64,000 bases of DNA from an uncultured bacterium. GTDB taxonomy: Bacteria; Patescibacteriota; Gracilibacteria; Absconditabacterales; Absconditicoccaceae. Shown here piece after piece: positions 31,586 through 36,430 of this stretch; position 1 is the stretch's first letter, and every line of letters begins with the position of its first letter. The notes below the pieces were generated by a model that did no database searches, was not told where the DNA came from, and saw only the letters and a program-made list of their open reading frames with translations. Position numbers and translations under genes: made by a program. The stretch is from assembly GCA_963545225.1 (NCBI GenBank), contig CAUUID010000001.1, positions 3,175 through 67,174 of the forward strand, given 5' to 3'.

Positions 31586-34500
31586 ATGAGTAATCCAGAA
31601 ATTAAAAGAGCTGAGGATATTAAGAGAGAGCTTTATCTAGGTGCTGAGAAGGCTAAGAATATTAATGAAAAGATTAATGAAACCGTTGATCAAAAGGATG
31701 TTGAAACGCTTCTTAAGTTTAGGGAGGAGAATGCTGTAGCGCTTAATTTGCTTAAGCAGAATTTTCAGAGTCCAGAATTTCAAAAGAAATTTGATGATGT
31801 CCTTAAAGGTAATCAGGTTTTACTTTTGAAAGAAGCGACAAAACAGGCAAAAACTCAGGAAGATAAAGCAGAGATGGCGGTATATCTCGATCAAAAGAAT
31901 GTTTTTAGTAAATATAATACTGCATTGGCAGATATTTCTGGTTCTATAGCTCAGCTTAAGGAGGAATTGAAAAATCCAAAGGATAGAAAAGATAAGAAAG
32001 CTCTTAAAGCACAGATTGATGAATTAGAAGATTTGGAAAAACAGATTTCTAAGGAGTATGCTGATCTTAAAGCTCGTATTGGTATTGAGATTACTGAGCT
32101 TAATAGAGATATTCTTGTAGATGTTGAGTGATATAATGTGGCAGCACATAATAACTTTAAGGTATCTGGTGCAGAAACTAAAACTGATAAACAGAGGCTT
32201 CATAAGACGGCAAAGGAGGTGAGAAAACTTTTTGAAAAAATGTCAGAAAATGCAGAGCAAAAGTTAAAGCTTCAACCTGCTGAGAAGAAAATTATGAGAC
32301 AATTTGCTGGAATTGTTAGTGATGTGTTAAAACATTCAGAAAAATCTGTGACTTCTAGTGGTGTGCCTGTTGAAAAGTTTATTTTGGATTTGGCTCATAA
32401 TGATAATGTAGCATTTTACACTCCAGAGGATCTTATCAAGAAATTTGAAGATAATGGTTTAGTTATTAAGAAAGAGAGCTGGTGGCAAAGGAGATGGTGA
32501 GAAAGAGGAATTACTTATTTAAAGGATATTTCTAATTTTTATAGAGCAAGCCACGATATTAAGGATGCTGATGCTTATAACTCAGGGGCAAATTTGAGAA
32601 AGTATTTTGATTTAATTAGGCAAACTGGTTCGTTTCAATCAGCTTTGGATACCTTTAATCCAGAAGTGGGAAAGGCCCTAGATTTACGTAAATTGCCTAG
32701 AAATGAGAGATTTGCTAAATTAAAAGAAAGTAAAAATGTGACTAAGGATGATATCGATAAGGTGATGGATCTTTGTCTAGATTTTAACCTGGATGGGATG
32801 ATCGTTTATGGCGATACTGGTATCAAGGGAGGAAATCAGATTAAGGAAATGTTTAGTAAATTTGTTACTCCAGAAGAGAGAAAGCAGGCTTTTGAAAACA
32901 TTTTAAATGCTGTTTCTAAGGCTAATAAGTCTCAATTGCAAGGAAAAAAACTGACTGTAGATGATGTTATTCAGGATTTTGAAACTTTTACTGCAGTTCA
33001 GAATTTTCTTAAGAATCCTCCAATGGATATGAATTATATCCTTAAGTATGGAGATAATGCCTTTGAGGAATATAAAAAGGCGATGGCTGGTAAGAGGCTT
33101 TTAACTCTAGAGGAGCAAAATGAAGAAGATAAGAAGGTTGAAGAAGGTGCTAGAGAGATTATTAAAGAAGTGTGAGATAAAGTGACTGAAATTGAGGCTA
33201 AATCGGCAAAGGCTAAGGCAGAAGGAAGAGATAAAGATGCGGAGAATTACCAGAAGGCAGCTGAAAAGCTTAAAAAACTTAGAGATATGGATGCTAAGCT
33301 TCTTAGAGAAGGACTTAGAGAGGTGTTGGAAGGACAGGCAGCTGCAATTAGGCAGTCTGGACTTGGTGCTGGAGTAGATATTCCGCTTACTAGGATTTTG
33401 AAGGGACTTTCATTTAATTTTGGAGCTAGATACAGCGAAGATGGATCTATCAATGCTGGAGTGAATCTGGCATGGAATGGTAGTGTAGATCTTTCTGCAA
33501 ATGGTAGATTTAAGGGATTTGCTGGAGTTTCTGCTGGAACTAATCTTTTGTCTATCCCAATTCTAGGAGGAAGTGCTGGACTTGGATATACCTTTGAAAA
33601 TTCTAAGCAAGATAAATCGCTTGATGTTAGAAGTGAAAAGACCTTTACGCTTGGTGTTGGAGGTTTAATTGCTCCTAGTGTAATTGGATGGAATATTAAT
33701 ATTGGTGTAGATAGAGATCTTGATGCTGGTAGATTGCAGATGCAGGAAAAGATTAAATCAAGTGTTGGTAGTTTAGTTGTGGATTTGATGAGTTCCTCTG
33801 ACGAAAAAAATTCTGAAAAAAAGTTTACTTGAGAAAAGTATAAATTTGATGAGAAGATTCTTAAGGAGAAATTAGAGGCTAAATATCCGAAAACCAAGAA
33901 AGAAACTCTTGAGACTGCTGTTAAAAATCTTGGTCAGATATTGCAATATTATGATTGAGTTGAAATGAATGAGGCTAATGTTTCTTTGATTGCTGAGGAA
34001 ATTTCGACCGCATATTCTCAGGCTTGGTCAAATATGCAGGCGCTTAAACTTGCTGATAAGGGATGGTATATTTCTGGAGCTGGGCTTTCAGTTAGCTTTT
34101 TCCAAGGAGTGATCCCAGTAGTTGGAATTTTGAAGTTTGCAAAGCATAGATTTCATGGGTCTTCTGATACAAAAGAATCAATTCAGAATTTTATTGATAT
34201 GAGAGAGGCATGAAAGTGAAATAGAGAGCTTGTGGATGAGAACTTGAGCAATAATTTGATCGCTCTTGAGCAGCAGCTTGGCGTTGAAAAAGGAACACTT
34301 TTGCTTGTAGCTGATCAAGATGGAGCTGCCGTTGAAGAATGAAAAGATGCTGATTATATTCAGATTTCTTTAGATAAGTTGCTTGCAAAATCAAATATTG
34401 CTTTGAATTCAGCGATTAAGCAGAATATAAAAATTGATAAAGAAAAAAGGACGATTATCGTTCATAAAAATACTCTTTTGAGAGCTTCAAGTGGATATTT

Positions 34501-36430
34501 GGCTGATTCAAAAGCTATGACCTTGGATATCGGGGCTCATAGGACAGATAAGTCTGCACAGATTATTACAAAGGATTCGGTGAATGATTTTTTGAATAAT
34601 CAAGTGAATGAGTGGAATCTTGCACCAGAAGCTAAAATTGCTCCAGAAAAGTTGCCAAAATTGGTTGCTAGTTTGGATGAACAGAAGTTTGCTAGAGCAT
34701 TTAAGGAATTGAAGGACCAAGTTGTTAGGGCTGGTTATGAATTCCCTTCGGAATATGCAAATTTGACTATCAAAAAAAATGCAACTAATAAAGAAGGGAA
34801 GCCTGTTTATGCTTTGTTTGGTAATGAGAGTTTTGTAAAAGATGGTAATTGAGAGCCGCTTATAATTCCTGAGGGGAAACATCTTGTGATAGATGCAACT
34901 GGTGGTGAGGTAAAGTTTAAGTTTGAAGATATTCAAACCGGTAAGGAAAATTTTAAAGTAAAGTTTGAGGGTCTTCCTAAGGCTGCTCCTATATCTGCTG
35001 ATGTCTTAAATGTAGATCCGGATATACAGGGACTCATCAATGGGCTCTATACAAATTTGAGTCTCTTGAAATCACACGCGATTAGAAATGTGGCTCATGG
35101 AGAAACAGGTAGAGCTTCTTTAACAAATGGGTATGCTGCTTGGAGAAAGGCTTTGTCAGATTTTTGTTGTGAATTGCCAAAGGAGTGAGATTATGAGAAA
35201 ATTAATCTTGCAACAGATAAGATGATTGCATTGTTGTTAAATATGGATAAATATATTCAACATTCAGATGGTGTAAATAAGCGTGGAATTTTTAATGACC
35301 TATTAGATGGTTCTTGAGGTTTACGTGCATTAAAGGAGAAAACAGATTATGCTAGTAAGGTAAAATTGCAGCAGTTGCTTCTAGCATTGGATGGTATGTT
35401 TAGTAGAACAACAAATGTAAGAGGAACAAATGAAAATAATAAATATCAGCTTCAATATGGTGCTGAGTCTAATAAGAATACATTTAACCAGATTACTACA
35501 GATATTTCTACAAAGATTGTCGCTAAGATGAAGAGGTTGAATGCCAAAAAAACTGGTCAATTTGATTGTTATGAGGACTATGCAAATTTATTTAAGTCAA
35601 TGAATGAAGGAACACAGAATATTGAATCTCAAGTAACATCTGTAGTAAAGGAGGGGGTTATTGCTTATAACTATGGAAATCCTGCAGATATGATGAGACC
35701 TATTATCAACCCTCATATTATTGAGTGAACGGAAAATAAGAATAAGCTTCCTATTCCTGAAGCAGTAAAATTACATGTTCTACAGCAGCTTTTCCAGGAA
35801 GATTCAATTCTTGTTGCGAATATCCTTCAGAGTCTTAAGGAGAGAACTTGAAGTACTCAGACTTTGGAGGAAATGAGAGAGATCGTTTATGCTCAACTTT
35901 GAAGTCTTTTGAAGTGAGAAGCTGTTGACATTTGATGAAAAAAGGTTACTATGTGAGCTAGTTTCTCTACTGGATATTTTGCTCAGTGTGTGAACCATAT
36001 GGTAATGATTGGAAATCTTCATTTTAATGTTGGAGGAACTCCAGGTAATCCTGATGGAGGTAAGAATAGATTTGAAGCCGAGATTGCTGGATCAGCTCAA
36101 GTAGTAGCAAGTATGGAGAGTGATATCCAGAATAATAACACTACGAGAAGATTCGCTGTCGCTGCAGAGGTTGCACGTTTCCACACGGATAGTCCTGGTA
36201 CTCCGACTACGGAAGGAGGTGATTGAGAGAAAACTGAATGAGGAGATGAGTGAGATACTCCACCGTCTAATAAACCTGCATGATCAGAAGATACCGGTAA
36301 TGAGGGTAAGGGGGAGGTTACAGTAAAAGACCAAAAGGATACATCTAATACAAATCCTGCAGGTGCTCCAAATGTTCCTCCATCAGCTCCTACCCCTTCA
36401 ATAACTGAGGAAAATCCTTTAGATGTATAG
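31586..36430 (+). CDS. giant orphan protein (about 1614 aa): K/E-rich coiled-coil N-terminus, two Gly-rich amphipathic segments, Pro/Thr/Gly-rich C-terminus; no signal peptide
   Basis: Nine track ORFs (31574, 32138, 32594, 33182, 33965, 34379, 34886, 35366, 35990) are all in frame 2. I read every gap and found only TGA codons. True TAG stop at 36428-36430. No known domain recognised. Confidence 0.75.

Follow-up and report, generated by a model that had tools for sequence, protein, structure and literature searches.

A recoded giant protein of oral SR1 bacteria and its possible partnership with a fibrillar adhesin

Absconditabacteria (SR1) are common, uncultivated bacteria of the human mouth. 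Their environmental relatives that have been cultured suggest a life spent in attachment to other bacteria. In the 64-kilobase (kb) stretch of DNA analysed here (the window, which is our genome view of the gene in question), a very long reading frame at positions 31586-36430 of the plus strand predicts a protein of 1614 amino acids (aa), hereafter the target, whose gene lies directly 5' of that for a secreted adhesin. What kind of protein is this, and might it be a functional companion of the adhesin? We propose, with a probability of roughly 40%, that the target is an envelope-associated partner or anchor of the adhesin, situated at the cell surface or host interface; the docking, the localisation and the membrane association that this proposal calls for are what we infer. 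What seem to us the strongest functional clues, namely the gene cassette, the mosaic structure of its populations and the pairing of the target's tail with the adhesin, had been missed in an earlier note on this DNA.

The target frame holds 1614 sense codons and is closed by a TAG terminator at 36428; the nearest in-frame stop on its 5' side is a TAA at 31547, and each of the stop codons inside the frame (22/22) is TGA, which bears out the statement of the earlier note that one frame stays open for 4.8 kb with TGA as its sole interruption. When TGA is read as a sense codon, the window as a whole resolves into long genes, mostly on the plus strand, including those for leucyl-tRNA synthetase (LeuRS), EF-Tu, the S10/spc ribosomal operon, SecY, ATP synthase and ribonucleotide reductase. 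The genetic code is that of table 25, not that of table 4, because TGA codons of the window occupy invariant, universally conserved glycines in two motifs of the ATP synthase beta subunit and in one of LeuRS ('TYVgGAEH'). TGA is thus glycine throughout the window, under the code of candidate division SR1. Public protein entries of this lineage that were met in the analysis have TGA translated as tryptophan or are cut at TGA, and the public copies of the target family are without exception mistranslated with Trp for Gly or chopped into fragments; because of this, standard annotation pipelines hide the family.

It might still be asked whether the frame is a gene at all, and not one that is open by chance, a decayed gene (pseudogene) or what is left of a phage, for example of its tape-measure gene, since the standard code breaks it 22 times and the public gene calls hold many short fragments of it. 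This possibility is effectively refuted: TGA is glycine throughout the window, the frame is unbroken in more than 45 loci at identities down to 22%, its ratio of nonsynonymous to synonymous divergence (dN/dS) is below 1, and its neighbours are ribosomal-protein, secY, adhesin and GT4 glycosyltransferase genes, with no phage genes nearby. A phage tape-measure or other structural protein was also tried as an identity and rejected, there being no PHROG match for the target copy or for a clade-B homologue; two distant homologues gave only weak PHROG matches (E >= 0.03) to unrelated families, and the best matches in BFVD had TM-scores of ~0.05. Because the frame is kept in distant full-length homologues (at identities down to 22-24%) and dN/dS is below 1, the target is a real gene, of the expressed type, in an oral SR1/Absconditabacteria bacterium.

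A search of 5.8 billion proteins recovered 87 homologues of the target, which fall into a group of ~57 proteins of 1608-1635 aa that are 69-96% identical to it, a group of 28 proteins of 1690-1737 aa at ~39% identity, and two proteins at ~24% identity. A profile search of 1.84 billion cluster representatives extended the family to at least 111 clusters at 50% identity (E <= 1e-3), in which the full-length members range from 1300 to 2083 aa and many others are fragments that result from gene calling under code 11. All of these clusters lie in TGA-recoded contigs; none is annotated, named or Pfam-bearing, and a scan of GTDB genomes placed the locus in metagenome-assembled genomes of candidate division SR1 from the human mouth. 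The description of the target as an orphan, given in the earlier note, is therefore refuted in favour of a sizeable unannotated family, and its companion statement that no known domain is recognisable stands: Pfam, NCBIfam, PHROGs and PADLOC returned nothing above noise for the target and its distant homologues, and the sequences of the PDB gave no match to the single sequence or to the family profile. Foldseek comparison of AlphaFold2 (AF2) models, which had been suggested as a check, yielded no match at E <= 1e-3 (both models against the PDB, one against BFVD) and only weak similarities to barrels; the top matches to MlaD and to the OB-fold of SSB were dismissed at probabilities of 0.06-0.2. 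No description of the family was found in the literature. The target family is undescribed, is restricted to the SR1 lineage and is without a detectable relative or fold match; it stands outside every known kind of protein family, and its function is a matter that we infer.

The evidence that bears most directly on function comes from the end of the target and the beginning of its 3' neighbour, for which the following features are needed (nt, nucleotides; pLDDT, the AF2 confidence score).

31586..36430, plus strand: target gene, 1614 codons with 22 TGA and a TAG stop
36086..36427, plus strand: disordered acidic Pro/Thr/Gly/Asn tail of the target, residues 1501-1614, pLDDT < 50
36476..41842, plus strand: adhesin gene, 46 nt 3' of the target stop, 1788 aa with a cleavable-type signal peptide
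36476..37045, plus strand: signal peptide and variable N-domain of the adhesin, about residues 1-190, type 1, 'APYQEVSCGNQPSNNSCSQCF...'

The adhesin carries CLIPPER/DUF11 and CLIPPER_2 repeats and is of the fibrillar-adhesin type (PF01345, E = 2.6e-34); no such repeats were found in the target by Pfam. The low-complexity tail, rich in Pro, Thr, Gly and Asn as the earlier note had it, terminates in the window in ENPLDV (nt 36410-36427). When the tail endings were compared with the adhesin N-domains (~180-290 aa, for which there is no Pfam match), five classes of the one were found to pair with five classes of the other in 45 loci, across species and with 0 exceptions.

Type 1: tail ...[ED]NPL[DG][VL]; N-domain begins APY.EVSC...SCSQCF
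Type 2: Gly-rich tail with R at its end; N-domain begins W..TN.YWF.QKCDEVR
Type 3: tail ...AT[DE]E; N-domain begins ESVRFVTQ...NQCLGANET
Type 4: tail ...EQxDF or DVPDPF; N-domain begins PY.QCIP.QSKDV.YYIPN
Type 5: tail ...NENNF; a fifth N-domain

Types 1-4 each occur on at least two different target bodies (clades) and in at least two species, and loci L005 and L006, whose clade-B bodies are 73% identical over the region compared, are of types 2 and 3, respectively. The pairing also had predictive value, in that type-1 adhesin N-domains were predicted from ENPLGL tails in distant species and were found in nine loci. Within one type, the N-domains retain 62-86% identity between species in which the target bodies share 24-30%, and N-domains of different types are 24-31% identical on bodies that are 73-96% identical.

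The variation of the locus within the window's own species was followed in six genomes and ~20 metagenome contigs. The genes that flank the target show 99-100% protein identity and a synonymous divergence (dS) of 0.08-0.15, whereas the dS of the target is 0.3 within clade A and ~1.4 in comparisons with clade B; dN/dS is 0.28-0.44 for the target versus 0.00-0.08 for rplB, secY and the GT4 gene. Alleles of the target that are 36-39% identical lie between flanks that are 99% identical. In L005 and L006 the DNA is 98.6% identical to that of the window up to codon 24-40 of the target; the identity is then lost for 5.4 kb, and it resumes ~190 codons into the adhesin gene. Windowed synonymous and nonsynonymous differences (pS/pN) and the identities of individual segments distinguish modules at residues 41-360, 481-540, 1021-1140, 1141-1260 and 1261-1500 and in the tail, each with two to four allelic types that reassort almost freely, and residues 541-1020 form a core that is at least 93% identical within clade A. 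As judged from these sequence comparisons, the target locus is a recombination mosaic. Three loci on BNJT/BNJS metagenome contigs (L064, L067 and L068) were left out; the beta-core (see below) and the 94-aa gene are matched there at 40-57% identity, and only short open reading frames (ORFs) are present in all frames, even with TGA as sense, which probably reflects assembly indels.

Two AF2 runs, one with 44 and one with 53 aligned homologues, modelled the architecture of the target on exact substrings of the homologue P0001, which is 96% identical to it and reads Trp where the target has TGA. The tail apart, the predicted parts are as follows.

31586..33355, plus strand: N-terminal all-alpha region, residues 1-590, K/E-rich, pLDDT 55-85 in residues 100-160 and 230-500
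33359..33715, plus strand: beta-core part 1, residues 592-710, six amphipathic strands
33716..34063, plus strand: helical insert of three helices, residues 711-826, pLDDT ~50-77, moderate to low
34064..34150, plus strand: beta-core part 2, residues 827-855, strands 828-839 and 842-854 paired as a hairpin
34253..36085, plus strand: C-terminal mixed alpha/beta domains, residues 890-1500, pLDDT ~65-90, no structural match

The N-terminal part, which the earlier note took for a likely coiled coil, is indeed rich in lysine and glutamate, as had been noted (K+E 24-30% in residues 1-300 and 501-600), and is predicted to form ~27 separate helices, the longest at residues 134-188 (55 residues), with no single long rod; Pfam and Foldseek gave no match to a coiled-coil family signature. 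The previously reported lack of a signal peptide also holds, the N-terminus 'MSNPEIKRAEDIKRELYLGAEKAKN' being highly charged and separated from the 5' stop by only 12 codons. The two Gly-rich segments are found where the earlier note had placed them (residue 592 at nt 33359 and residue 827 at nt 34064). Glycine makes up 17.6% of residues 592-710 versus 6.8% of the rest of the protein, and K+E 6.7% versus 19.7%. No other part of the family is as well conserved over its clades as these segments, and the 270-residue beta-helix-beta core to which they belong is the sole module present as a unit in all remote homologues. Part 1 has strands at 609-616, 622-635, 642-653, 657-669, 686-696 and 699-709 and invariant motifs that include G-x-G-x-G...P...LKGLSF and AWN; part 2 exceeds every other stretch of the protein in hydrophobicity (Kyte-Doolittle mean 1.71).

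Both AF2 runs give the core eight long strands in antiparallel arrangement, each of 8-14 residues, at a pLDDT of 20-35; the turns are of the DG/NG kind, and Trp residues stand where strands end. A period-2 alternation of hydrophobic and small polar residues is conserved family-wide in the recoded orthologues, such that one face would be hydrophobic (mean Kyte-Doolittle up to +2.3) and the other composed of Gly, Ser, Thr and Asn, not of charged residues. The suggestion that the two segments are membrane-inserting or pore-like has fared unevenly: they are conserved, charge-poor, periodic and strand-like, but the models are of low confidence, the beta-moment of the single sequence does not exceed that of shuffled sequences (8 windows versus 4.5 +/- 3.3), no pore-forming toxin is matched and no export route is evident. 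Prediction of amphipathic strands and transmembrane segments, also suggested at that time, gave the same divided answer, with the alternation seen family-wide but the single-sequence test not significant and no credible transmembrane helix. The best 19-residue windows have Hessa-scale sums of +5.2, +5.7 and +6.8 kcal/mol, and residues 831-849 are the sole window passing a Kyte-Doolittle value of 1.6; helical transmembrane insertion is unlikely because of these sums, and a transmembrane-helix anchor was rejected on the same values (+5 to +7). Only transmembrane beta-barrels recur among the weak Foldseek matches, and they do so at E >= 1 (best E overall, 0.28); they include the designed barrel TMB10_163 (probability 0.91, TMt 0.42), OprB, BamA-EspP and a barrel of a cyanophage that resembles outer-membrane proteins. 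A Bactofilin-like beta-helix was considered and rejected, the core region being too poor in charge for that fold. On balance the models and the alternation favour an amphipathic beta-structure for the core; a pore is compatible with them but not established by them.

The target and adhesin genes belong to a larger cassette, the other members and boundaries of which are given here.

31073..31110, plus strand: terminator-like hairpin with a T-run just 3' of secY, from a consensus scan in which the number of sites in the region was not above that in shuffles
31188..31215, plus strand: promoter-like site ATGACA-16 nt-TATAAT 5' of the 94-aa gene, 11/12 matches, from a consensus scan that carries no evidence of function
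31254..31538, plus strand: 94-aa gene without in-frame TGA, directly 5' of the target
41885..43093, plus strand: polytopic, WecA/MraY-like GT4 glycosyltransferase gene, in synteny at all long loci (PF00953, E = 1.1e-5, slightly short of the Pfam cut-off)
43116..44228, minus strand: convergent SLT-like gene with weak similarity to lytic transglycosylases (E = 0.0014, below the Pfam cut-off), syntenic in long loci

The terminator-like hairpin separates the ribosomal-protein/secY operon from the cassette. Synteny of the target, adhesin and GT4 genes holds within the species and in distant SR1 species in which the target is only 24% identical, and the order 94-aa gene, target, adhesin, GT4 is likewise kept in distant species, where the cassette follows rplQ, rpsI or adk and not secY. 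Even at locus L009, where the homologue is very remote (2083 aa, 96 TGA codons), the next gene encodes a signal-peptide protein. The 94-aa protein, which starts MTKKEYIITFLDKVKDIWEPARGF, is encoded directly on the 5' side of the target at the majority of the loci that were fetched (58 tblastn matches) and was not detected at L009 and L010; its identity is 96-100% within the species and ~50-55% in distant SR1 species. It has 162 homologues, all of them unannotated hypothetical SR1 proteins, and Pfam, PDB and PADLOC gave no convincing match to it, only weak sub-threshold ones (in PADLOC a PtuB match with E = 0.0017, 16 bits). It is probably part of the target/adhesin unit. Across SR1 species it is far better conserved (~52%) than the target (~24%).

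The adhesin is itself a mosaic, in which residues 1201-1500 and ~1560-1680 occur in alternative alleles (~49% versus 100% identity) that reassort independently of the N-domain; it also contains a run of ~16 glycines followed by a Cys-rich 'CGDG...EKCDPND' motif. On the 5' side of the cassette the ribosomal operon ends at secY (29574-31110) and the usual adk-map-infA-rpmJ-rpsM continuation is absent; in one distant SR1 species the cassette follows rpsM-rpsK-rpsD-rpoA-rplQ(-rplM-rpsI-adk). Positions 318-1148 of L010, a short contig, hold a prepilin peptidase gene (PF06750) directly 5' of the remote homologue P0149, in a single instance.

In the arrangement that we propose, the target would work together with the secreted CLIPPER adhesin encoded next to it and would provide the adhesin fibre with a base or partner on the side of the cell. 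The uncharged, Gly-rich eight-strand core might associate the protein with a membrane or an envelope layer, the disordered Pro/Thr/Gly tail of ~110 residues might act as a spacer, and the last residues of the tail (ENPLxV, EQxDF, G-rich-R, AT[DE]E or NENNF) might engage the cognate N-domain of the adhesin. A pair of proteins placed in this way at an interface with the host bacterium, with phages or with the human host would come under diversifying selection; the pair evolves by the shuffling of ancient allelic modules, with the unit of tail and adhesin N-domain travelling as one cassette within and between SR1 species. The locus would then be a conserved four-part candidate for contact, composed of a 94-aa protein, a giant protein without a known fold, a fibrillar adhesin and a glycosyltransferase, and it does show the population signature of an exposed interface, with ancient alleles, modular shuffling and cassettes that cross species. 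Several observations weigh against this proposal. The target has no signal peptide or recognised secretion signal and no credible transmembrane helix, and its core is modelled at a pLDDT of only 20-35. The tail and the adhesin N-domain are encoded only 25-52 nt apart and differ too much from type to type to permit homologous crossover within the cassette; therefore linkage alone could preserve the pairs. Across species, tails of one type share only 26-49% identity, which leaves the case for pairing dependent on the final 4-8 residues. Linkage does not account, on the other hand, for the joint divergence of tail end and N-domain into discrete classes, or for the persistence in each class, across species, of a terminal motif of its own.

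A bolder form of the proposal, which we consider rather improbable, is that the cassette is a new host-contact apparatus of epibiotic SR1, in which a giant signal-less protein would have its core as a channel or anchor of new fold and its tail as an 'address' that plugs into the matching adhesin N-domain, and in which at least five interchangeable address/receptor cassettes, traded between SR1 species, might set host, phage or immune specificity.

Among the competing explanations, one that is compatible with the envelope-partner proposal holds that the eight strands, alone or oligomerised, insert as a beta-barrel to form a pore or translocon, for which the most attractive target would be the envelope of the host bacterium, the barrel serving as a feeding or delivery channel of the epibiont beside the adhesin. 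That the core is the most conserved module family-wide, that its strands alternate between a hydrophobic and an uncharged face, with strand lengths, turns and terminal Trp residues of the kind described above, and that barrels recur among the weak Foldseek matches would all suit such a pore. Patescibacteria are regarded as monoderm and as having a conjugation-type type IV secretion system (T4SS) (PMC12102498), so that a barrel might more plausibly act on the membrane of another cell. We nevertheless think a pore unlikely, given the low pLDDT, Foldseek E-values that are all 0.28 or higher, a single-sequence beta-moment not above shuffles, the lack of a known secretion route, and the lack of similarity to aerolysin, alpha-haemolysin, MACPF/CDC and other pore-forming families in Pfam and the PDB sequences; amphipathic strands, moreover, occur in soluble sheets too. 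It is likewise doubtful, to our minds, that the target is a cytoplasmic or membrane-peripheral scaffold, that is, a helical protein of a cytoskeletal, attachment-organelle-like or division-related kind whose variability and pairing merely hitch-hike on a diversifying adhesin. Such a role would fit a protein that is without a signal peptide or transmembrane helix, is all-alpha and K/E-rich for its first ~590 residues and is encoded beside ribosomal-protein operons, and the pairing is explicable by linkage where crossover homology is missing inside the cassette. Hitch-hiking does not sit well, however, with variable modules (residues 41-360 and 481-540) that lie far from the adhesin gene and reassort independently, or with terminal motifs that are type-specific and conserved across species; a dS of 0.3-1.4 and a dN/dS of 0.3-0.44 along the whole gene would be unusual for an internal scaffold, and Pfam and Foldseek found no cytoskeletal family match to the target.

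The target might, with far less probability, be a polymorphic toxin or bacteriocin-like effector delivered without the Sec system, by a type VII (LXG-like) system, a T4SS or lysis, with the 94-aa protein as its chaperone or targeting factor. It is large, signal-less and highly polymorphic, with a helical N-terminus and a small conserved gene directly on its 5' side; LXG toxins have small helical partners, which the 94-aa gene brings to mind, and some T4SS signals are acidic disordered C-termini, of which the target's tail is reminiscent. Yet Pfam and NCBIfam detected no LXG domain or other toxin domain in it, the gene on its 3' side is that of the adhesin and not an immunity-like gene, the variation is modular over the full length and not limited to a C-terminal toxin module, the position beside core genes is fixed at all loci that were recovered, whether from SR1 genomes or from oral metagenomes, and the target has no PADLOC or PHROG match.

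Some further identities were tried and rejected. A defence system was set aside, the target and its homologues having no PADLOC match and a syntenic position that is fixed in all loci. As a substrate of RTX type or of type I secretion, the target would have a tail, 'GGDGEKTEGGDEGD', that does not fit the GGxGxDxUx nonapeptide, and Pfam gave no RTX match. A sortase substrate was rejected on the charged N-terminus and on a C-terminus (...TEENPLDV) without a hydrophobic stretch or LPXTG signal.

The remainder of the window offers a few observations of its own. Its GC skew keeps a strongly positive value throughout (0.16-0.37 beyond 6 kb), nearly all of its genes lie on the plus strand, and Rfam detected in it only transfer RNAs (tRNAs). 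On the minus strand, ORFs of 225, 304, 240 and 331 aa without obvious housekeeping identity occupy positions 695-4953, and a tRNA-Thr gene (5486-5558, minus strand) adjoins this block, where the GC content is slightly higher (0.39-0.40); the block could be an integrated element. At 55669-61824 on the plus strand, an ORF of 2052 aa with a lipoprotein-type signal peptide (…LAFLAGC) and 26 TGA codons predicts another giant envelope protein.

How does the proposed pair compare with systems that are already known? The SR1 predator Vampirococcus has giant proteins that are taken to lie at the membrane and to mediate recognition of, and attachment to, its host, and those of Vampirococcus lugosii (1392-4163 aa) were assigned through recognisable interaction domains (PMC8080830). 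The target resembles them in phylum-level lineage, genetic code and very large size, but its family is without recognisable interaction domains and without a signal peptide, and neither that report nor the one on Patescibacteria cited above (PMC12102498) describes the family. A second comparison is with the fibrillar adhesins that have CLIPPER domains as isopeptide-bonded stalk modules (PMC12617251), which the downstream partner matches in its signal peptide, its variable terminal domains and its CLIPPER/CLIPPER_2 repeats. The adhesins described so far carry their anchor (LPXTG, OmpA-like or sorting domains) on the adhesin chain itself, whereas the target, which may take the role of the anchoring domain, would be a polypeptide of its own, 1614 aa long and lacking both CLIPPER domains and known anchor motifs.

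The cohesin-dockerin pairs of cellulosomes are alike in principle, a C-terminal element being matched there to a cognate receptor domain in discrete specificity types, but there is no similarity in sequence or fold, and in the target the element of this putative interaction would consist of the last few residues of a disordered tail. With beta-barrel pore-forming toxins and small transmembrane beta-barrels the target shares a Gly-rich composition low in charge and a barrel-like geometry in the AF2 models, and its predicted strands (8-14 residues) would be amphipathic, with small polar residues on one face; it differs from them in the lack of homology (Foldseek E >= 0.28) and of a secretion signal, and in having its core in the middle of the protein with a helical insert of 115 residues between strands 6 and 7. 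The pneumococcal proteins PspA and PspC and the surface antigens of Neisseria are encoded by mosaic, recombining surface-protein loci of mucosal bacteria, and the target locus is like these in that ancient blocks of alleles are reshuffled between near-identical strains, that dS and dN/dS are raised over those of the flanks, and that the hypervariable regions consist of charged helices. The target departs from those proteins, which do have a signal peptide and an anchor that is known, and it is also unlike them in that its alleles and cassettes are shared across species whose orthologues are only 24% identical.

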